DNA from: a virus
Reading direction: 5' to 3' (one strand)
Length of the DNA: 64,000 bases
Virus record (IMG/VR): IMGVR_UViG_3300042309_001835
Coordinates: 1-64,000 of that record
In this document: positions 54,221-64,000 of the stretch, one piece after another
How positions within the stretch are numbered: the stretch's first letter is position 1
Layout of the letters: each line of letters opens with the position of its first letter
Position numbers and translations under genes: made by a program
The notes under the pieces: model-generated
Database searches by the model: none
Seen by the model: only the letters and a program-made list of their open reading frames with translations
What the model was told of the DNA's origin: nothing

Positions 54221-54511
54221 CTACCATAACTCCTTGTTAGCCCAGTAAGCACCGGAAAGTTTTCCACGTGCAATATTCTTTGCGTGCCTACTTTTGAAAG
54301 ATTCACGCCTTGCTTTGTCTTTAGCAGAATCACTGGCACTAGGTTTACCCGCTGTAGTCATTTTTTGATCGCCAAAACGTACCAGTTTCACGGTATCGCC
54401 ATCTTTCGCGAGAACTACGCCTTTTTTTGTTGGATGGTCAGGGGTTCGCTTCGGCTTGTTGTAACCCTCTAGACCATATTTTTCGAGACGGGGATCCTTC
54501 TTTTTGGCCAT
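54221..54511 (-). CDS. basic late protein
   Basis: GYNKPKRTPDHPTKK...VRFGDQ...AYWANKELW; late motif upstream. Confidence 0.7.
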   Translation of the reverse strand: MAKKKDPRLEKYGLEGYNKPKRTPDHPTKKGVVLAKDGDTVKLVRFGDQKMTTAGKPSASDSAKDKARRESFKSRHAKNIARGKLSGAYWANKELW

Positions 54512-54579
54512 GGAATCACGAATCCGATTCCTTAGATTTCCTGAATGCGTCCCTATAATGCCTTAGGTGCAACAAAGAC

Positions 54580-54891
54580 TTGCCGTACAGCGACCTTGAC
54601 ACGCAAAGGCAGCCCTGCCGAGCACTTCAAAAAAGAAAAGATATGGTTAACAGCGCCAAGGAGAAACCCTGTGCACATTGCAATCAGAATTACCCACGTC
54701 CTGTAATGGACCTGCATCACATTGACCCATCCAAGAAGGGGTTAGAAATATCTAAATTGGTGTACAGGTGCAGTTACAGTGCGCTCCAGGAAGAAATAAG
54801 TAAGTGCGTCCCACTCTGCGCCAACTGCCACAGGATGGTCCACGCCGGACTAATTGAACTGGAAGACCCGGAAATCCAGCCAAAAGAATAA
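54580..54891 (+). CDS. HNH endonuclease-like protein
   Basis: CAHC...DLHHIDP...KCVPLCANCHR. Confidence 0.8.
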   Translation: MPYSDLDTQRQPCRALQKRKDMVNSAKEKPCAHCNQNYPRPVMDLHHIDPSKKGLEISKLVYRCSYSALQEEISKCVPLCANCHRMVHAGLIELEDPEIQPKE

Positions 54892-54899
54892 AGAATAAA

Positions 54900-54980
54900 T
54901 GGCCTCAACGAGAGTCGAACTCGTACACCCTGCGGCGGCGCATTTTAAGTGCGCTGTGTCTACCGTTTCACCATGAGGCC
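54900..54980 (-). tRNA. tRNA-Leu(TAA)
   Basis: Cloverleaf: GCGCA-CT-TAA-AA-TGCGC, long variable arm, GTTCGA. Confidence 0.9.
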
Positions 54981-55056
54981 TGGTGCTCCCTGCGTGGATC
55001 GAACACGCCTAAGGTCGATTATGAGTCGACTGCATTCACCAGATTGCTAAGGGAGC
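54981..55056 (-). tRNA. tRNA with CAT anticodon (elongator Met or Ile2)
   Basis: GTCGA-CT-CAT-AA-TCGAC, GTTCGA, encoded CCA; no initiator features. Confidence 0.88.
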
Positions 55057-55173
55057 AGCAACCGTCACACTGTAGCCGATGCGGGTCGTCTTTGTAATAT
55101 CCTCGTCCCATGATCTCCTGTAGACGGTTGCCACCGGGCACGCTAATGTCCACCTAAGGCCCTGCGACCTACA

Positions 55174-55548
55174 ATGCCCCGTCCAATCAAGCCACGTTCA
55201 AGCCGTCGCCGCCTGCAGGGACAGCGCATCCTAAGCTTTGTCGCAACCCATCAAATCGATGGCAACGGCATCCAAGGTGTTACGGCTGCCAGGAAATTCG
55301 TATCACAAAATAATGTTTGCTATCCGGCAATCATTCGCGTTCATCGCAACAGGTATACAATCGACAGTTTTTTCCTCGCGGAAAAGGGAATGTTCGGATT
55401 GGCATATGCTGAATTCAATTGGATGGTATTTCCGTGCCTTCGGCAACTGGTCGAAAAAATTGGCCCAAGAGAGCTTTTCACTGACTTGGGCCTTTATGAT
55501 TGGGCTTCCGAAGAAGAGAGCTACAGGGCGGAATACGCTTTTATCTAA
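55174..55548 (+). CDS. hypothetical protein
   Basis: 124-aa ORF. Confidence 0.55.
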   Translation: MPRPIKPRSSRRRLQGQRILSFVATHQIDGNGIQGVTAARKFVSQNNVCYPAIIRVHRNRYTIDSFFLAEKGMFGLAYAEFNWMVFPCLRQLVEKIGPRELFTDLGLYDWASEEESYRAEYAFI

Positions 55549-55967
55549 GCGACCCTAGTTAGCCTGTTTCCGAAGTTGAACTTATAGCCCTCGACGGTTT
55601 GATCCTGACAGGGCTCCATGTATGTTCTGAAGCAACAAATCTTGTTGATTGCCGTGGTGTCAACGCCAAACTCTTTGGCAATGTCACCCTGCTTTTCACC
55701 CAAGTGGGCCCTTAGGCGAATTTCGTAAATCTGACGATCGCTGAAAAAGCCTTGCTTGCGTCCACGCTTGACTGGATCGACGCTCACGGGTGGCCGACGC
55801 ATAACACGTCTGACAACGCGGCCAGGAGTGCTGGCCGAAACGTCTGTAATCCTGGCTATGCTGTCATAGTCATAACCTTGGCACCTCAGGTCCCAAATGC
55901 GGTCTTCTTTGGGAATGGAAACTCTTCCTCTTGCTCTGGTCATGGTTTCGGGTAATGGGTATCCCAC
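55545..55967 (-). CDS. double-HTH DNA-binding protein
   Basis: YDSIARITDVS; QGDIAKEFGVDTTAINKI. Confidence 0.7.
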   Translation of the reverse strand: MGYPLPETMTRARGRVSIPKEDRIWDLRCQGYDYDSIARITDVSASTPGRVVRRVMRRPPVSVDPVKRGRKQGFFSDRQIYEIRLRAHLGEKQGDIAKEFGVDTTAINKICCFRTYMEPCQDQTVEGYKFNFGNRLTRVA

Positions 55968-56069
55968 TGCCCTTCTATCTTAGACGAATACTGGAGGGAA
56001 GCAACCCCCGGCCCGCCGCAGTGTTACAATTTATTGACACGCCACATCAGGCGTAACCGTTGCATTACG

Positions 56070-56240
56070 TTACAATCCCCTTGTTTCATAGTATCCACGA
56101 TTTAATTGAACCCAGAAAGCGGATGCTTCAATGCGCTGGCTCCAGGCTTCTGGGTCCGATGGGTCGTGGATATTTTGCAGATATATTGGCGGGAACATTG
56201 AACGCTTCCAGGCCCTGAAGGCCCAATAAATATAGCCCAC
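56070..56240 (-). CDS. possible 56-aa protein (not in ORF track)
   Basis: GTG-started open frame MGYIYWAFRAWKRS... Confidence 0.35.
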   Translation of the reverse strand: MGYIYWAFRAWKRSMFPPIYLQNIHDPSDPEAWSQRIEASAFWVQLNRGYYETRGL

Positions 56241-56271
56241 GCTATTGCAGACAAACTAGCATAGATTACCA

Positions 56272-56373
56272 GCGCCCAGACGGGAATCGAACCCGCATCG
56301 TAGTCCTGTCATATAGCATTGCGTCCAACGCATCAGCCAGGTACCGACCTGTCCAGTTGGTTCGGACTGGGCG
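56272..56373 (-). ncRNA. tRNA-like RNA with enlarged anticodon arm
   Basis: CGCCCAG/CTGGGCG acceptor stem, GCGGG-TTCGATT-CCCGT T arm, extended D and anticodon arms. Confidence 0.7.
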
Positions 56374-56374
56374 A

Positions 56375-56448
56375 CGACTCAGACAGGACTCAAACCTGTG
56401 ACCGACCGCTTAGAAGGCGGTTGCTCTATTCAACTGAGCTACTGAGCC
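56375..56448 (-). tRNA. tRNA-Arg(TCT)
   Basis: ACCGC-CT-TCT-AA-GCGGT, canonical D arm, T loop TTTGAGT. Confidence 0.88.
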
Positions 56449-56461
56449 ATTAGTCAGGCAG

Positions 56462-56527
56462 GGCGTCTTACCGTATCGGGCGGTATCTCCTGGCTATGTG
56501 CCAGGCGTGTTCCTTACACCAAGACGC
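56462..56527 (-). ncRNA. miniature tRNA-like RNA (CAT at loop centre)
   Basis: GCGTCTT/AAGACGC, GTGT/ACAC, CCTGG-CA-CAT-AG-CCAGG, ACCG-CCCGATA-CGGT. Confidence 0.6.
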
Positions 56528-56529
56528 AG

Positions 56530-56916
56530 TGACCCTCCTGTTTGTGCATCATCCAGCGTCCTGGGGCTAAGCATAGAGGGTGTTTGCACGGATCTAACCT
56601 GCGATCCGTAAGGGGTACCTTCTCCCTAAGGGGCCCCGCCGGGTCCGGGACGGTTGGTCAACCGTATGCAGTCCGTCGAGCTTGCCAAGTGGGTCGAGGG
56701 CTCAACCGTGGACTAGACGGGCGGAGGTGATCAACCCTCCGGCCTGGAAACCCAGGACTTCACGCAGGTCAACAACGATCGAAAATTTCCGATCCAGAAT
56801 CGACGCAGTGCCCATTCCTGTTGACTGCACCCCGCCGACAGAGCAGCGTGGGGGGTTAACAGAAGGATTGGGCGTGACCGGATACAAAAGTAACCAGACA
56901 GTGGCCCAACCTCTGT
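56530..56916 (-). ncRNA. series of structured RNA modules, including a tRNA-like one at 56715-56836
   Basis: Contiguous GC-rich stems, no credible ORF. Confidence 0.55.
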
Positions 56917-56923
56917 CACTAAC

Positions 56924-56932
56924 AGTATACCA
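56924..56932 (-). promoter_or_regulatory. extended -10 promoter TGnTATACT
   Basis: TGGTATACT about 7 nt upstream of the first RNA module. Confidence 0.65.
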
Positions 56933-56937
56933 CAAAG

Positions 56938-57465
56938 TCAGTCCACGTTGACTGCCATCTCAGACCTGATTTGCTCAAAGTCGATTGGCCTGTAGTCCGT
57001 ATGTTCTACGCATACGCATCTGTATCTGAGATCGGGCTCATCTTTCTCATCCAAGACTTGTCGGTAATGTAAATGTCCATGGATATTGCCCTTGTACCTG
57101 ATGACTCCACAAGTGTGAACAGGAATATGCGTCAGGACATAATGATCCAGGTAATGACACCCTCTGATGTCATCAAAATATTTCACATAGTCCTGTAGCT
57201 TGAAAATATCATGATTTCCTCTGATTAGAATCTTCCTGCCATTCAGCCTTTCTAGACACTTCAGTCCACGCCTGGGAATAGCCACGTCTCCAAGGTGGTA
57301 AACTTTATCCTTGGGGCTAACGGTGTTGTTCCAGTTGTCGATCAATGCTTCATTCATTTCATCTACGTCATCCCAGGGCCTGAGCTTGGAGCCGTCGTCC
57401 CTGGTGAATCGGCAGACGCCGCCATGCCCGAAATGTGTATCAGAGATTAAGAATGTCTTCGTCAT
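56938..57465 (-). CDS. calcineurin-like metallophosphoesterase
   Basis: SDTHFGH, HLGD, GNHD, HGHLH. Confidence 0.9.
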   Translation of the reverse strand: MTKTFLISDTHFGHGGVCRFTRDDGSKLRPWDDVDEMNEALIDNWNNTVSPKDKVYHLGDVAIPRRGLKCLERLNGRKILIRGNHDIFKLQDYVKYFDDIRGCHYLDHYVLTHIPVHTCGVIRYKGNIHGHLHYRQVLDEKDEPDLRYRCVCVEHTDYRPIDFEQIRSEMAVNVD

Positions 57466-57966
57466 TACAGGAATTGTTCCATTAAGCTCACCTTAGCTTG
57501 ACAGGACGAGATGATGGTATAAGTTGTTATCGCACTCTGACTTTACAGCAGGATGACCCCCAGGACTCCAGTCGAGGTACTGCCCGCCAAGCCAAACAGT
57601 GACTACCGAGCCACCTATCGCTTGGACGGTGAGGTGTCTAAGCTGAACGTCAATGCTGCAAGTTACTACGAAGTGTGGCTTATTGTAAAGCGCACGTATC
57701 CAATGGCCTCTGTGGTTGCCATTTTGCTTGTGACCGTCTAAGGTCCGTCCAATGTTCGCAATGATCAACAAATGAATGGATAACCTGGTAGAGATCACGT
57801 CAGCCCTGATCGAAACAGGCAACCGCAGTCCCCGCGCTACGGCAATCGCTGTACTCAGGGCACTGTCCGCAACACTGAGGATTTATCCAGATCCAGGCGA
57901 CCTTAATCTGGAGGACTGCGCCGACTGGATTGACTCACAGCTTGAACAAACTAAACCATTCAAAAA

Positions 57967-58694: not shown

Positions 58695-58994
58695 ATGGAG
58701 GCTGCCTTGACCAACAAGCGTCAGTTCAACCAACCCCCGCGTGAACTGTTAGAGCAGTGGGTTGAAGAAGCCGATCAAAAGCTGACGACCCTGGAGGCAT
58801 GCCAGCACGTCGCTCAGAAGGCCTCTGAGTGGGGTTTCGCCACAGCACTGTGCCCTGACCCCAATAGCCTGAAACAACGCGCCCTGAGGGGCCTGGAGCG
58901 CATCAAGAACCTTGGTGTGGTATCGACATGGGTGGGCAAGGACGTATTTCAAGTAATCGAGGAGGCCCTGGAGAGTCTGCCAGACAATACATAA
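58695..58994 (+). CDS. divergent member of paralog family A
   Basis: PPRELLEQW...SEWG...SLKQRAL...IEEALESLPD. Confidence 0.6.
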   Translation: MEAALTNKRQFNQPPRELLEQWVEEADQKLTTLEACQHVAQKASEWGFATALCPDPNSLKQRALRGLERIKNLGVVSTWVGKDVFQVIEEALESLPDNT

Positions 58995-59079
58995 GCAATA
59001 CTAATGGTTTGAGGTATTGACCTGCGGGTGTCTAGCGGATAATTTAGATATGTCCTTAGACGCCAACAGGCTCTTAGCC

Positions 59080-59961
59080 ATGCAGATCACCAAGCCCATG
59101 CTCGCCGGAACCTATGACGCCTGTAAGGCGCGTTTCCCTTATATGGCGACTCCCAAGATTGACGGCATCCGTTTTGTCATGGTCGAGGGTGTTGCCCTGA
59201 GTCGTTCGTTTAAGCCGATCCGTAATGCTTACGTGCAAAGCACGCTAAGGAGCTGCTTGCCGGATGGCGTTGACGGCGAATTGACTTGCGGTGATACGTT
59301 CCAGTCGTCATCATCGGCAATCATGTCAACCGATGGCACGCCGGATTTCAATTGCTGGATTTTTGATTATGTCGACCCGTTTAGCGATATCGTAGCACCC
59401 TATCGAGATCGGATCACTGATCCAGCGCTAGTTGAACTGGAAACTGAGCAGTTCATTACCATCCTGAAGCCAGAACTGGTTGCCAACGAACAGGAGCTGC
59501 GAGCAGTAGAAGAACGTTACCTTGATGCGGGGTTTGAGGGCGTAATGGTGCGTGACCCGGATGGAGGGTACAAGTTTGGCCGCTCCACGGTCAAAGAGAA
59601 CACTTTACTGAAAGTGAAGCGTTTTGTTGATGACGAAGCAATCCTGGTCGGAGTGCTGGAAAAGCAGCACAACATGAACCAAGCCATGCAAGATGCGTTT
59701 GGGCGCACAAAGCGCTCTACCAGTCAAGACGGCAAAGTTGGTGCCAATACTGCTGGTACGTTGGTCGTGCGTAACGCAGATGGCGTTGAGTTTGGTATCG
59801 GCACAGGGCTCGATGAGGCCATGCGTGCTAAAATTTGGTCCAATCCTGGTGAATTCGTTGGCATGATGGTTAAGTACAAGTATTTTCCCGTTAGCGTCAA
59901 GGAGAAGCCGCGACACCCTGTTTTTCTGGGATTTCGCCATCGCGATGATATTTCGTCATGA
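59080..59961 (+). CDS. ATP-dependent DNA ligase
   Basis: KIDGIR motif I, DGEL, FEGVMVR, LLKVK, RHPVFLGFR. Confidence 0.93.
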   Translation: MQITKPMLAGTYDACKARFPYMATPKIDGIRFVMVEGVALSRSFKPIRNAYVQSTLRSCLPDGVDGELTCGDTFQSSSSAIMSTDGTPDFNCWIFDYVDPFSDIVAPYRDRITDPALVELETEQFITILKPELVANEQELRAVEERYLDAGFEGVMVRDPDGGYKFGRSTVKENTLLKVKRFVDDEAILVGVLEKQHNMNQAMQDAFGRTKRSTSQDGKVGANTAGTLVVRNADGVEFGIGTGLDEAMRAKIWSNPGEFVGMMVKYKYFPVSVKEKPRHPVFLGFRHRDDISS

Positions 59962-60300
59962 ATGCCTCGCTTCTGATCTTCTATTTGCTCTTGTTGTACA
60001 TTGCATTACTGCAAGCTTCTCAGTAATGCAAGTTACACCACTGATCCTGTTCTCTGTAGATGAACAAATGCCACCAAACGAATACCGACGCAACGCACGT
60101 TTTGATTCTTTGGCAGAGTATGACCACCTTGCTAAGTCAGACGACTTCATCGAAGTAACCGAATGGCACAACGGTGAAGGTTTTGATGTACACCTTAGTA
60201 CCAATGCTGGTGAACAACGTATGTCATTTAGCTGGGGTGAGTACCAAGCATTGAAAGCAACCCTTGGTGACTGGGCTGAAAACAATCTGGAGGATGAAAA

Positions 60301-60621
60301 ATGACTAATCAACACCCGATTACCCCACCACTCGAGCTGTTAAATAAGTGGAACAACCTGCCATTAAGCAATCAAGAGATCCTTGTGATTGTCGCCCAAT
60401 GGGGCGCCGACCAGGAGCTGGCGGCGTGCTGTGAGTGGCTGGAAAACCAGCCTCAGTGGATGGAAGATCTTCGTTCTGCCCGCCGCCCCAAGCTGCCGAG
60501 CTTGAAGGAACAGGCGCTGAAAACGTTGCAAAGGCTGTCCAAAGATGGATTCCCCTGCAACTATCAAGAATACTCTGATTGGGACACCATCCGCCGCGCA
60601 CTGGAGGCGCTACCTGAATGA
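60301..60621 (+). CDS. paralog family A member 1
   Basis: MTNQHPITPP...AQWGADQEL...RRPK.PSLKEQAL...IRRALEALPE. Confidence 0.75.
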   Translation: MTNQHPITPPLELLNKWNNLPLSNQEILVIVAQWGADQELAACCEWLENQPQWMEDLRSARRPKLPSLKEQALKTLQRLSKDGFPCNYQEYSDWDTIRRALEALPE

Positions 60622-60965
60622 CTGACAACCACCCGATTACCGTCCCCGCTGGATCCATCACCGGATGGAAACTGCTTTATTGTAATTATCAAGGGGATCT
60701 TTCTGAAACCGAATATATTGTCCTAAAATCCGCTCAATGGGGCGCCGACAAGGAGCTGGAGGCGTGCTGTGAATACATTGCCATGAAAGGCAAATGGTTT
60801 GCTGACTCACATTTTCGCTTGAAGGAACTTCGCGCCGCCCGCCGCCCTAAGCCATCGAGCTTGAGGGAGCAGGCGTTAGAAGCCATGCACCGCAACTGGA
60901 ACCCACGCAACAGCGACGACTTCGACATTATCCGCCGCGCACTGGAGACTCTGCCCAATGACTGA
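60618..60965 (+). CDS. paralog family A member 2
   Basis: Same four conserved blocks. Confidence 0.75.
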   Translation: MTDNHPITVPAGSITGWKLLYCNYQGDLSETEYIVLKSAQWGADKELEACCEYIAMKGKWFADSHFRLKELRAARRPKPSSLREQALEAMHRNWNPRNSDDFDIIRRALETLPND

Positions 60966-61308
60966 CCAACATCCCATCACCCCACCGCCGGAGCTGGTGC
61001 AGCAGTGGTGGGAGCAAGCCGATCAGTATCAAGACGATCCAAAGACTTACTTCGACTTTATAGTTACCGAAGTAGCCCAATGGGGTGCGGACCAAGAATT
61101 GAAAGCTGTTTGTCAGCTTTTGTTTTCAGACCCGTCAGTTACCTATACCCTTTCCGACATCCGCGCCGCCAGGCGCCCTAAACCGCCGACGCTGAAGGAG
61201 CAGGCTTTGGAGCAACTGGACGGAATCGCAACTGTATTTCGTATGACTCACGGTGGCAACATCGTGTGCGACAAAATCCTCGCTGCTTTGGAGGCGCTAC
61301 CCGAATGA
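60958..61308 (+). CDS. paralog family A member 3
   Basis: Same four conserved blocks. Confidence 0.75.
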   Translation: MTDQHPITPPPELVQQWWEQADQYQDDPKTYFDFIVTEVAQWGADQELKAVCQLLFSDPSVTYTLSDIRAARRPKPPTLKEQALEQLDGIATVFRMTHGGNIVCDKILAALEALPE

Positions 61309-61490
61309 AGCCAGCGCATAAACGGGCTCTCCGTTGCTTTCTTCTTGAGAAACTCCGCGAAGTGACGTGTCTACAGTTAAGCGAACTAGCCGAAACTCAT
61401 GACTGCCAGCCGTTTGATATGGCTGAACAATTTGAGATTGAGGTTGGACGTATTGAAAAACTCTTTTGTTACCCGCACTACGATGGCTGA
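61305..61490 (+). CDS. hypothetical protein
   Basis: ATGA-coupled, MKPAHKRALR... Confidence 0.55.
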   Translation: MKPAHKRALRCFLLEKLREVTCLQLSELAETHDCQPFDMAEQFEIEVGRIEKLFCYPHYDG

Positions 61491-61740
61491 ACCTATCTCC
61501 CCCGCCGCGCAGGCGGTGCTACGTGCCTACATGAACAACTGTGGTTGGCTAGACGGCCCTCTCAAAAAAGACTACCAATGTGCCGCCGCCGTCCTGCGAG
61601 CTGCTGCGAATCAGGTGGTGCCACCCAGCCTTGAAACAGAGTTTTACGATCGCAATCCAAGTTTGACGCTGCAAAAAGCGGTGGAGATCCGCCAGCGTCT
61701 GCTCGCCATCGCCGCCGAACTGGAGGGTAACAATGTGTAA
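61483..61740 (+). CDS. paralog family B member 1
   Basis: SPAAQAV...LRAAANQVVP...LLAIAAELEG. Confidence 0.7.
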   Translation: MAEPISPAAQAVLRAYMNNCGWLDGPLKKDYQCAAAVLRAAANQVVPPSLETEFYDRNPSLTLQKAVEIRQRLLAIAAELEGNNV

Positions 61741-62023
61741 TAAATCGCAGGGTTTTTACGGTTTGGACGGTATGCTTTCCCCCGCTACTCAAGCAATCAT
61801 GGTTGCCTGGGAAAGCGAATGGAGTAAGGGAAGTTTTTGCCATGAAGAACGCTCCGTGGCCGCTGCACTCCGCGCTGCGGCGGATCAGGTGGTGCCGGAA
61901 GAGGATTCCTACGAAGGGGGATTCTCAGATTCACTTGAGCACCAATGCCGAGCATCTGAACGCAGACTTGCTCGCGCCGAACTCCTTGCTCTCGCCGCCG
62001 AGCTGGAGGGTGGCAATGACTGA
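61733..62023 (+). CDS. paralog family B member 2
   Basis: SPATQAI...LRAAADQVVP...LLALAAELEG. Confidence 0.7.
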   Translation: MCNKSQGFYGLDGMLSPATQAIMVAWESEWSKGSFCHEERSVAAALRAAADQVVPEEDSYEGGFSDSLEHQCRASERRLARAELLALAAELEGGND

Positions 62024-62546
62024 CTTTCGTGCGCTGTGCGCTGAGCTGGCTGATTCCGTAGAGCTGTTGCTTGAAATGCGGAGCAATGATCGACCGATGC
62101 GGGTAACAGAGGATCGCCTTAACCGCGCCCGCGCCGCCCTGGAGGCCCAGCCCGAGCCGCAGGGGCCAACGGATGAGGAGCTAGAGGATTTCGCACTGCA
62201 AAATGGTGGTGGCTATTTCAACTGCGACTGCCAGGAAGAAGCTGACATTCTCACCCGGAAACACATGAGCAACTATCGCGCCGTACTCACCCGCTGGGGC
62301 CGCCCCGCCATCGAGCCGGTGCCGGTGAGTGAGGGGATGCCTGGCCCGGAGGATGTAAACGACGATGGCGAAGTATGGGTCGAAGAGCCCGCTTACGATT
62401 ATCCGTTGGGTGACACTGGCGATTACGACAGCGAGCCCGGCAGATGGGTGCTAAAGCCGCTCTCGTCCCTTGATAAGCGCTTCAAACGACGCTGGCTCCC
62501 CCACTCGGCGTTGCCGGTGCCTGGGGTGGAGGGTGCCGATGGCTGA
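62016..62546 (+). CDS. modular hypothetical protein (MTDFRALCAEL...)
   Basis: RARAALEAQPEPQGPTDEEL, RWGRPAIEPVPVSE, WLPHSALPVP blocks. Confidence 0.65.
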   Translation: MTDFRALCAELADSVELLLEMRSNDRPMRVTEDRLNRARAALEAQPEPQGPTDEELEDFALQNGGGYFNCDCQEEADILTRKHMSNYRAVLTRWGRPAIEPVPVSEGMPGPEDVNDDGEVWVEEPAYDYPLGDTGDYDSEPGRWVLKPLSSLDKRFKRRWLPHSALPVPGVEGADG

Positions 62547-62852
62547 CGCCCTGCTTGCCCTCGCCCTACTGCTCGCCCTCGGCGCAGCGATTGAGCTGTG
62601 CATCAAGGCGATCTTCGTGCGCCTGCTGCCGTTGCTGCTGAGGTTGCCTGGTAGTTAAACAACCGTACCATCATTTCAAAATGAAAGCAGAAGTCCTGTA
62701 TGACCCGCTCGCTAACACCTACTGCTGGAAGCTGTGGACAGGTCCAGACGGCATTGACGAATATCGTGGTATCGCAGCCTCTATTGGAGAAGCGTTTGAA
62801 GCGCTGATTAGAGCAGAAACCATTAACTCTCTTCATTACACAGCATAAAGCA

Positions 62853-63167
62853 ATGACCGAAACCAGACAACTCTCTGACCTGGCGATGGACTTTGACACC
62901 AAATACAAAGTTAACGAAAAGCCCGTCAAGCAACAGGAGGAAAAGTTAGCAGAATACCACTTAAAGTACTGCGGGCCACTCTGGCAGCGCATTGGCGGTA
63001 AGACAGGGCCATACGACCTGGGGCCAGGCGAGATCGCAAGTATTTTGAGACTGATCGCTGACGAGGCAGAGCATCGCGGCGAAATAGACTATGGCCGCGA
63101 TCCGGGGGAAACTGTTGACTGGCTGCGTTCTCAGGCTATGATTGCAGAGTCCGCCATAGGCCTTTAG
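62853..63167 (+). CDS. hypothetical protein
   Basis: 104-aa ORF. Confidence 0.55.
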   Translation: MTETRQLSDLAMDFDTKYKVNEKPVKQQEEKLAEYHLKYCGPLWQRIGGKTGPYDLGPGEIASILRLIADEAEHRGEIDYGRDPGETVDWLRSQAMIAESAIGL

Positions 63168-63172
63168 CCATC

Positions 63173-63571
63173 ATGAGACACAGCTTGACCTACGAGTCAC
63201 TCTTGGCTGACCAGGAGCGTGCCCGTAAAGCATTTGGTTATATGATACGCTCTTGGCGTATCAGGAACAAGTGGACGCAGTACACTGCTCACAAATGGGC
63301 AAAAGAGGCAGGTTTTGAAGCCATTTCATACGGCAATCTGTCTTGCATTGAACAAGGCAAGGCCGGTGAGTTACGCCAGAAGGCGTTCTTCCAATTGGAA
63401 GAATTGAACAGGCGCCTCAATGCCAAGGATTGGGGAAGCGTTAAAACACAAGAAATCAAACAAAAATTGGAGCACTCTCAGCCACTGATTGATGACGATG
63501 GCAAGCTTTGGGATGCTGTTGATTTTTGGGCTTGCTACGTTGGTTACAAAGCAACCCCGAAGGTTTGCTAA
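63173..63571 (+). CDS. XRE-like HTH protein
   Basis: FGYMIRSWR...WTQ...LSCIEQGK. Confidence 0.65.
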   Translation: MRHSLTYESLLADQERARKAFGYMIRSWRIRNKWTQYTAHKWAKEAGFEAISYGNLSCIEQGKAGELRQKAFFQLEELNRRLNAKDWGSVKTQEIKQKLEHSQPLIDDDGKLWDAVDFWACYVGYKATPKVC

Positions 63572-63623
63572 TGAATAACTGATTTCCGCTATTGTTTAAC
63601 CTAAGCATCGAAACTTCTTCAAA

Positions 63624-64000
63624 ATGAAAATCAAAAACGGATTCATCGACCCTGCTTATGCCACCGTTGTTGCCGGCGCAGTCTTGCTACTCGGTCTTGT
63701 CTTTGTAGGTGGACCAATGTATAATGTGTGGCAACAATCTCTTGCCGGTAAGGCAGAACTACAGAAGGCAGAATACACTCGCCAGGTAGCAGTTCTGGAA
63801 GCACAAGCAAAGAAAGATAGTGCTCAGCTAAATGCTGATTCTGAGGTGATTCGTGCGGGTGGCGTTGCCAAAGCAAACCAAATCATTGGTGATTCCCTGA
63901 AGGACAACCGCGAGTACCTCCAGTATCTGTACATCACTGGGCTGGAAGAAGGTTCCAGCAAAGGTAACGTAACCGTCTACGTTCCCACTGAGGGTGGAAT
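63624..64000 (+). CDS. 3'-truncated membrane-anchored coiled-coil protein
   Basis: MKIKNGFIDPAY-TM-GPMYNVWQQSLAGKAEL...; open to the window end. Confidence 0.7.
   Translation, partial: MKIKNGFIDPAYATVVAGAVLLLGLVFVGGPMYNVWQQSLAGKAELQKAEYTRQVAVLEAQAKKDSAQLNADSEVIRAGGVAKANQIIGDSLKDNREYLQYLYITGLEEGSSKGNVTVYVPTEGG

Follow-up and report, generated by a model that had tools for sequence, protein, structure and literature searches.

The window studied here is a stretch of 64,000 nucleotides (nt) of viral DNA, positions 1 to 64,000 of the IMG/VR virus record IMGVR_UViG_3300042309_001835. On its minus strand, the region between the stop codon of a phosphoesterase gene and a terminator-like hairpin at about position 56235 contains, from 5′ to 3′, an extended −10 promoter, a structured RNA of about 390 nt whose last hairpin resembles the abiF RNA of bacteria, a small tRNA-like element, a canonical tRNA-Arg(UCU), and a second tRNA-like element. 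A sequence-only reading of the window had described the region as an array of tRNA mimics and structured RNAs around one real tRNA. Comparison with related loci revealed a family of viral RNAs, and the features suggest that the operon is most likely an RNA anti-defence cassette that would be cut apart by tRNA-processing enzymes.

The extended −10 promoter TGgTATACT is present at 56932-56924 (minus strand), just past the stop codon of the 175-amino-acid phosphoesterase gene, and transcription is predicted to start at about 56917-56920. In 26 of 27 homologous loci, a TAnnnT −10 box is found 6-7 nt ahead of the conserved 5′ end of the RNA (GAYAGAGG), with TGn in 15. A terminator-like hairpin is often found upstream of this −10 box in related loci. 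Thus, with its own conserved −10 box often lying behind such a hairpin, the RNA is a separate transcription unit, and the promoter noticed in the sequence-only reading holds up well. A scan for two-hexamer promoters did not flag TGgTATACT because it has no −35 match. A block, TGCCTnCCTACGGnCG, is conserved about 15-35 nt upstream of the −10 box in many related loci (L188, L221, L258, L037, L079, L231, L275, L265, and L262; L numbers denote the loci collected in this study). The block may stand in for a −35 element or bind a regulator; a SigF-like sigma factor is encoded by these phages. The window lacks the block and has the end of the phosphoesterase gene in that position. At the other end, the terminator-like hairpin with a T-rich run (56235..56252, minus strand; by consensus scan only) is the probable end of the operon. 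Hairpins of this kind are no more frequent in the region than expected by chance.

As had been noticed, about 650 nt following the promoter have no credible open reading frame (ORF). From the promoter to about 56235, the longest ORFs have 77, 89, and 62 amino acids and no Pfam match at E ≤ 1. A protein-coding reading was rejected: the ORFs are short and lack family matches, and the alignments are rich in indels and compensatory pairs. The sole call of ARAGORN and Rfam in this stretch is the tRNA-Arg(tct), and a permissive Rfam scan of 54500-57500 found nothing else in it at E ≤ 10. The tmRNA, RNase P RNA, and group I intron readings were rejected on the lack of an ARAGORN tmRNA call and of an Rfam match. 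Likewise, the tRNA-Arg was the only match in a blastn search of the region against 50,697 phage records. Since the fold of the single sequence is only modestly better than those of shuffled sequences (z = −2.28), the case rests on comparison with relatives.

Related loci were collected by using the neighbouring phosphoesterase as bait and by RNA patterns. About 470 nt upstream of the tRNA-Arg are conserved among the fetched loci, and profile searches found the RNA family in about 100 IMG/VR viral loci, forming 63 clusters at 95% identity. Its modules have been gained, lost, and reordered among relatives, so that the length ranges from a minimal form of about 60 nt to about 500 nt. Covariation among homologues, which the sequence-only reading had named as a check, was found: compensatory changes are far above those in shuffled and slid controls. 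It is almost certain that this is a real structured RNA family.

The 5′ core of the RNA (56763..56917, minus strand; 96.2 bits and E 1e-25 with covariance model R1) consists of three helical parts. In the long-range helix P1, 56904-56911 pairs with 56866-56873. The next hairpin, M3 (56830-56851), bears the invariant loop region UGCUCUGUCG, and the helix M4 (56763-56828) encloses two inner hairpins. In alignment A5 of 14 sequences, 98.8% of the cells are paired, compared with 86.7% in shuffled and 29-45% in slid controls, and 45 cells show double changes against 11.2 in the control. Model R1 was built from this alignment and gave 65 matches in 64 sources. In alignment A6 of the 65 matches, which was fitted to R1, 98.7% of the cells pair (81.5% when shuffled) and all 24 of 24 pairs have compensatory changes. 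The 5′ core has no Rfam match at E ≤ 10, and no match to the 5′ core was found in the phages S-CRES1 and S-CRES3.

Domain D2 follows at 56663..56762 (minus strand; alignment A7, 14 sequences). It begins with the hairpins CCUGG/CCAGG and GGAGG/CCUCC and continues into a pseudoknot-like unit, in which CCGU/ACGG, AGUCC/GGACU, and UGAGC/GCUCG are arranged around the conserved loop CCUCGACCCAnUUGGCAA. For its 28 pairs, 98.0% of the cells are paired (89.6% when shuffled), with 35 double-change cells against 12.2. Domain D3 (56581..56668, minus strand) has four hairpins and is confined to five clusters; its alignment A9 of 5 sequences has 25 pairs, 6 of them with compensatory changes, so that its support is weaker than that of the other domains. 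With one exception, the modules of the sequence-only reading are confirmed. The supposed rod at 56859-56916 is a real structure, namely the helix P1 of the covarying 5′ core, and the hairpins at 56585-56714 belong to D2 and D3, both of which show covariation. The exception is 56715-56836, which had been taken for a tRNA-like RNA with a large insert; it does not resemble a tRNA and is instead made up of M4, including the hairpins inside it, and of the hairpins with which D2 begins. P1, M3, M4, and D2 are new, strongly covarying RNA motifs without an Rfam family, and they may point to further conflicts between RNAs and proteins.

RNA libraries of three studies contain near-identical contigs that do not extend beyond the predicted RNA (56618-56904, 56656-56890, and 56692-56853). 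The flanking genes, the abiF-like hairpin, and the tRNA-like elements all lie outside the stretches that these contigs cover. Being blind to the ends, the strand, and the level of the RNA, these contigs are a weak hint of transcription. Other contigs at 56400-56446 were rejected as the tRNA-Arg of other organisms, as they run on into unlike sequence.

The last hairpin of the RNA (56532..56580, minus strand) resembles the abiF RNA (RF03085) but has a long loop. When 56520-56600 was scanned alone with permissive filters, RF03085 was the sole Rfam match, with 16.5 bits and E 0.67. The match covers the full model length (1-37) and keeps both stems and the CAAACA internal loop. In the window, the hairpin has a 6-bp outer stem, a 3-bp inner stem (UGC/GCA), a 3′ internal loop (CAAACAG), and a 23-nt terminal loop composed of UUAGC, a CCAG/CUGG hairpin, and AUGAU. 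At the aligned position, nine family members (L079, L221, L239, L231, L087, L209, L249, L086, and L265) match RF03085 with 48.2-55.7 bits. The change of the inner stem from AGC/GCU to UGC/GCA in the window is compensatory, and the outer stem covaries across the family. Most members have the long-loop form, often with an even longer inserted hairpin, while 7 of 48 clusters were found to have the exact canonical loop GCCTCTCAAC. The last hairpin is thus very probably an abiF homologue, and the second rod of the sequence-only reading (56530-56581) is a real structure with this identity.

Directly downstream, 4 nt past the abiF-like stem, starts a tRNA-like element (56462..56527, minus strand). 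It has a 7-bp acceptor stem, a T arm, a short D arm without GG, and an anticodon-like loop CACAUAG, which has an A at position 33 and can be closed to 5 nt by a C-G pair. Because of the A33, the closable loop, and the lack of the D-loop GG, this element cannot decode. In an alignment of 19 sequences, 8 of the 15 pairs of the cloverleaf have compensatory changes, found in the acceptor, anticodon-like, and T stems. What had been called a mini-tRNA is therefore a conserved, covarying cloverleaf, though neither ARAGORN nor Rfam calls it in the window. Its better-preserved homologues are called by ARAGORN as tRNA-Ile, tRNA-Met, or tRNA-Val in 19 of the 48 clusters that have the GCNCAAAC anchor, and every tRNA so called starts 12-14 nt past the anchor, that is, 2-4 nt past the hairpin. 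A T-loop-like motif is found downstream of the anchor in 44 of the 48. The junction between the hairpin and a tRNA or tRNA-like element is therefore fixed.

The canonical tRNA-Arg(UCU) follows at 56375..56448 (minus strand). Both ARAGORN (56373-56449) and Rfam (RF00005, 63.8 bits) call it, as had been expected from the sequence, and it is 88-90% identical to the tRNA-Arg of cultured cyanomyoviruses. Only 1 nt past it starts the second tRNA-like element (56272..56373, minus strand), which has a perfect 7-bp acceptor stem, a D-like arm, and a canonical T arm (GGUUCGAUUCC). In place of an anticodon arm, it has a long stem that bears an inner hairpin and a 29-nt insert, and ARAGORN makes no call for it with or without the intron option. 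Homologues in two other phage contigs (L282 and L104) share 32 consensus pairs, 11 of which have compensatory changes. The sequence-only reading had described this element as a tRNA with an oversized anticodon arm; its acceptor stem and T arm covary. In its inner arm (about 56305-56340), UGAUG...GGACGC...CUAUA is invariant in 3 of 3 homologues and might bind a protein, perhaps as a kink-turn or similar motif. It is known that RNase P recognises the acceptor stem and the T arm. The tRNA-shaped units may thus be cleavage handles for RNase P, and after the putative cleavage at the first of them, the abiF-like hairpin would form the 3′ terminus of the ~390-nt RNA. In some viral contigs (L537, L542, L455, L456, L459, and L481), a tRNA-like 5′ half, GTCTCAGTAGCTCAGT...CTGCCTT, is found directly after a canonical abiF hairpin, and past its anticodon region it runs into unrelated AT-rich sequence. 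Such a half may belong to a tRNA gene that is split or interrupted by an intron and is missed by ARAGORN.

AbiF is a widespread abortive-infection toxin-antitoxin system, proposed to be the ancestor of Cas13. In Clostridioides difficile, the RNA RCd22, which has two abiF motifs, binds and neutralises the AbiF toxin (bioRxiv 10.1101/2025.04.15.648962). A review of the work on PbAbiF describes the AbiF-AbiFr complex (PDB 8VZ6) and the processing of the RNA by its own toxin (PMC12737573). At least 119 contigs from bacteria of several phyla contain the exact core AGCCTCTCAACGATGCNCAAA, and 4 of 5 control bacteria checked that carry the exact motif have an Abi_2 (PF07751) gene. In bacteria of several phyla, the 21-nt core is kept directly upstream of Abi_2 genes. 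The phage differs in this respect: no Abi_2 gene was found in its own complete genome or in five related virus records. I surveyed at least 123 viral loci with the canonical core, including the family members fetched earlier, with a profile of AbiF-like ORFs built from 48 bacterial downstream ORFs. Among the matches listed, 2 of 123 viral loci have an AbiF-like ORF, while ARAGORN calls a tRNA 12-18 nt past the core in 67 (42 of these being tRNA-Arg(tct)), and a further 15 have a T-loop-like motif. A search of the plasmid collection gave one irrelevant match, in Piscirickettsia.

Cultured cyanophages show the same arrangement. S-SRM01 has a promoter, an abiF motif of 49.3 bits, and then a tRNA-Arg five bases later; S-CREM1 has an abiF motif of 52.2 bits 4 nt before a tRNA-Gly. 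The authors of the S-CREM1 genome reported the first abiF small RNA (sRNA) in a cyanophage with its role unexplained (PMC9964418), and a 2025 review regarded the role of abiF sRNA in the cyanophage as unconfirmed. This annotation was the only published case of abiF in a phage that I found in the literature, and a search for AbiF together with Synechococcus and defence systems returned no paper. About 34 mycobacteriophages also carry the abiF motif, without an adjacent tRNA. In those of the LittleE type, it lies between small hypothetical genes and, in some records, partly overlaps annotated hypothetical protein genes.

How may a toxin-less abiF RNA at a tRNA junction serve a phage? The extended −10 promoter would give a transcript of about 690 nt, in which host RNase P and 3′ trimming enzymes would cut at three tRNA-shaped units: the non-decoding tRNA-like element, the tRNA-Arg(UCU), and the long-armed tRNA-like element. 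The cutting would release the modular ~390-nt RNA with a 3′-terminal hairpin homologous to the abiF RNA (AbiFr and RCd22). As the abiF RNA is the antitoxin that silences the AbiF HEPN RNase in a type III-like toxin-antitoxin system of abortive infection, the hairpin is most likely an antitoxin mimic that would hold any AbiF of the picocyanobacterial host inactive during infection; the phage has no toxin gene. I give about even chances to such an anti-AbiF decoy released by RNase P. A wider form of the idea, which seems rather doubtful, is that the whole operon is a multivalent anti-defence cassette, in which swappable modules mimic different host RNAs and soak up different defence proteins. 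Candidates for such modules would be P1, the UGCUCUGUCG hairpin, the D2 pseudoknot, the abiF-like hairpin, and both of the tRNA mimics that do not decode. RNase P and RNase Z would set the pieces free.

The sequence-only reading had proposed a polycistronic arsenal of small RNAs released through tRNA-shaped ends and possibly acting as decoys. The own promoter, the non-coding nature, the many modules, and the tRNA-shaped junctions support the first part, for which the processing is inferred. The putative decoy function is partly supported, for the specific target AbiF, by an abiF-antitoxin homologue in a phage without the toxin gene; no evidence was found for the targets that had been named, namely PrrC, VapC, PARIS, and anticodon nucleases. 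Nor is the system wholly undescribed as had been suggested, since the abiF motif is an Rfam family that has been annotated once in a cyanophage, S-CREM1 (PMC9964418). A natural phage countermeasure to AbiF was not found in the published literature. The abiF RNA that stands, toxin-less, at a fixed tRNA junction in over 100 viral contigs is a candidate that can be tested directly, and the motif is present in the cultured cyanophages S-SRM01 and S-CREM1 and in a group of mycobacteriophages.

Several observations weigh against the anti-AbiF decoy. The 16.5 bits of the window copy are under the gathering score of RF03085 (37), and its 23-nt loop with an inner hairpin differs from the conserved 11-nt loop CUCUCAACGAU; the altered terminal loop could mean that AbiF binding is altered or lost. 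In Mycobacterium phage LittleE (L557, 1208-1243), an abiF motif of 49.9 bits, which exceeds this score, has no adjacent tRNA. Moreover, some modules may be general leader elements: S-CBS2 (L436, GU936714) has, at 1447-1560 in the terL-sigF intergenic region, a lone CCCG...CGGG leader hairpin (UUCCCGCUCUGC...GCAUCGGGC) and P1 with no other modules, ahead of a protein gene, and P1 alone lies just before tRNA-Asn in S-SRM01 (31.3 bits). These cases fit an explanation in which the modules, the abiF-like hairpin included, serve phage tRNA operons and other early transcripts as general elements of leaders or of processing, with no tie to AbiF or defence. Such elements would set how stable the RNA is, direct its cleavage by RNase P or RNase E, or act by modifying the polymerase. 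The fixed distance of the hairpin ahead of a tRNA or tRNA-like element would suit them. However, the 21-nt core is conserved across phyla upstream of Abi_2, where it was found experimentally to bind the toxin (bioRxiv 10.1101/2025.04.15.648962), and identity of this kind argues for a shared protein partner and against a merely generic part in processing. In addition, the cultured relatives Syn33 and S-RIM8 process their tRNA-Arg and lack the abiF motif. Purely leader or processing elements are thus unlikely.

The RNA may instead work with a phage protein, either as a cis-acting leader or as a ribonucleoprotein partner of the phosphoesterase or another RNA-binding protein, with the abiF-like hairpin as a handle. 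The phosphoesterase gene often, but not always, adjoins the RNA. Many loci have only about 10 nt between the end of the RNA and the start codon of this gene, like the motif-then-gene layout of abiF, and loci baited with the RNA (L086/L092 and L090) also have an adjacent phosphoesterase gene. On the other hand, the gene precedes the RNA in the window and L003-L006, where the RNA has its own promoter, L083, L087, and L089 have the RNA with no such gene nearby, and the phosphoesterase is not a HEPN protein. The linkage is also inflated because most loci were fetched with that gene as bait, and a phage-protein partner seems quite improbable. It is also conceivable that a large ornate RNA of the GOLLD or ROOL kind acts as a whole, for example in self-assembly or catalysis, with the abiF-like hairpin as a structural piece. 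The RNA is phage-borne and adjacent to tRNAs, many of its unpaired nucleotides are conserved, and it contains multistem junctions and probably a pseudoknot; GOLLD and ROOL have a similar genomic setting (PMC5737381). The covariance models of GOLLD, ROOL, and other large RNAs gave no match at E ≤ 10, however, and the swapping, loss, and reordering of modules over the range of lengths fit independent modules better than an integrated fold, which makes this explanation very unlikely. The last and least credible explanation is that the region is decayed debris of degenerate tRNA genes and mobile-element scars with no function. The tRNA-like elements do resemble degraded tRNA-Ile or tRNA-Met genes, and HNH genes are common in related loci, but the degenerate elements keep their pairing through compensatory changes, the promoter is conserved, and the family extends over 63 sequence clusters. 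The covariation strongly disfavours debris.

The source phage is an S-CBS2-like cyanosiphovirus. The window is part of a 75.5-kb record rated complete, whose primase is 43-46% identical to the primases of the Synechococcus siphoviruses S-CBS2 and S-CRES1-3, and the terminase, portal, and ribonucleotide reductase genes are also present in the genome. The DNA runs containing the stretch are lake-water metagenomes. Related loci have glutamine riboswitches, a trait of cyanobacteria and cyanophages. These glutamine-II/glutamine riboswitches lie within 1-2 kb of the RNA, usually beside an opposite-strand tRNA (L086, 3930-3986; L035, 3818-3872; L024, 4172-4224; L249, 8154-8210; L221, 667-720; L037, 5165-5217; L006, 5353-5484). 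The phosphoesterase gene of the window (56938..57465, minus strand) belongs to phrog_547 (E 2e-49) and has a weak PdeM-like match. HNH endonuclease and helix-turn-helix genes are found between two tRNA groups of the window (54580-54891, plus strand; 55545-55967, minus strand), and HNH genes also flank the RNA in L083, L087, and L089. At 58695-64000, the ORF list of the window has arrays of short paralogous genes with the shared blocks WGADQEL... and RAARRPKP.... Sub-threshold Rfam matches to Plastid-ycf2 on the plus strand (54983-55056 and 54899-54980) were rejected as artefacts, being antisense to a tRNA-Met and a tRNA-Leu.

Among known systems, a parallel for the proposed function is pseudo-ToxI of phage PhiTE, reportedly a phage-borne mimic of the ToxI antitoxin RNA that allows escape from ToxIN. 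Both are toxin-less phage RNAs with a counterpart in the antitoxin of a host system for abortive infection of the type III toxin-antitoxin class. They differ in the toxin, which is the HEPN protein AbiF here and is said to be ToxN there, and in the form of the RNA: the phage RNA described here would release a single hairpin at a tRNA junction, while pseudo-ToxI reportedly consists of tandem repeats cut by the toxin. Protection is proposed for the former. If the anti-AbiF decoy is true, phages would have a second known class of antitoxin-RNA mimic besides pseudo-ToxI, and tRNA-processing enzymes would be seen to serve them in the maturation of anti-defence RNAs. The multivalent form, if true, would make tRNA-linked modular RNA arrays a general counter-defence strategy of phages. 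Release by tRNA enzymes has its own parallels. The tRNA cluster of T4 contains stable non-tRNA species, and MALAT1/mascRNA is matured at tRNA-like ends. These RNAs have no homology to the present one, but they are alike in that a non-tRNA RNA is co-transcribed with tRNA or tRNA-like units and released by tRNA enzymes, as would be the case here.

GOLLD and ROOL are alike as phage-associated, tRNA-adjacent, ornate non-coding RNAs. In contrast, the RNA described here is smaller, modular, and rearranged among relatives, and it matches them in neither sequence nor structure; their covariance models had no match in 54500-57500 of the window at E ≤ 10 or in seven related loci at E ≤ 1. The abiF RNA (RF03085; AbiFr of PbAbiF, PDB 8VZ6; RCd22) shares the 6-bp outer stem, the bulged A/U, the 3-bp inner stem, and the 3′ internal loop CAAAYN, and some members of the family have the exact conserved loop and exceed the Rfam gathering score at the aligned position. 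The phage differs in having no abiF gene, and the copy in the window is long-looped and sub-threshold. Compared with the two copies of RCd22, the phage RNA has one abiF copy, which lies at the 3′ end of the ~390-nt RNA and is followed by a tRNA-like element rather than a terminator and a toxin gene. Finally, the abiF sRNA of S-CREM1 likewise sits in a tRNA cluster of a cyanophage, with 4 nt between it and the next tRNA. It was published as a bare 37-nt Rfam match with no link to the absent toxin, to the tRNA junction, or to a larger RNA (PMC9964418), whereas the version in the window is a long-loop form at the end of the ~390-nt RNA.

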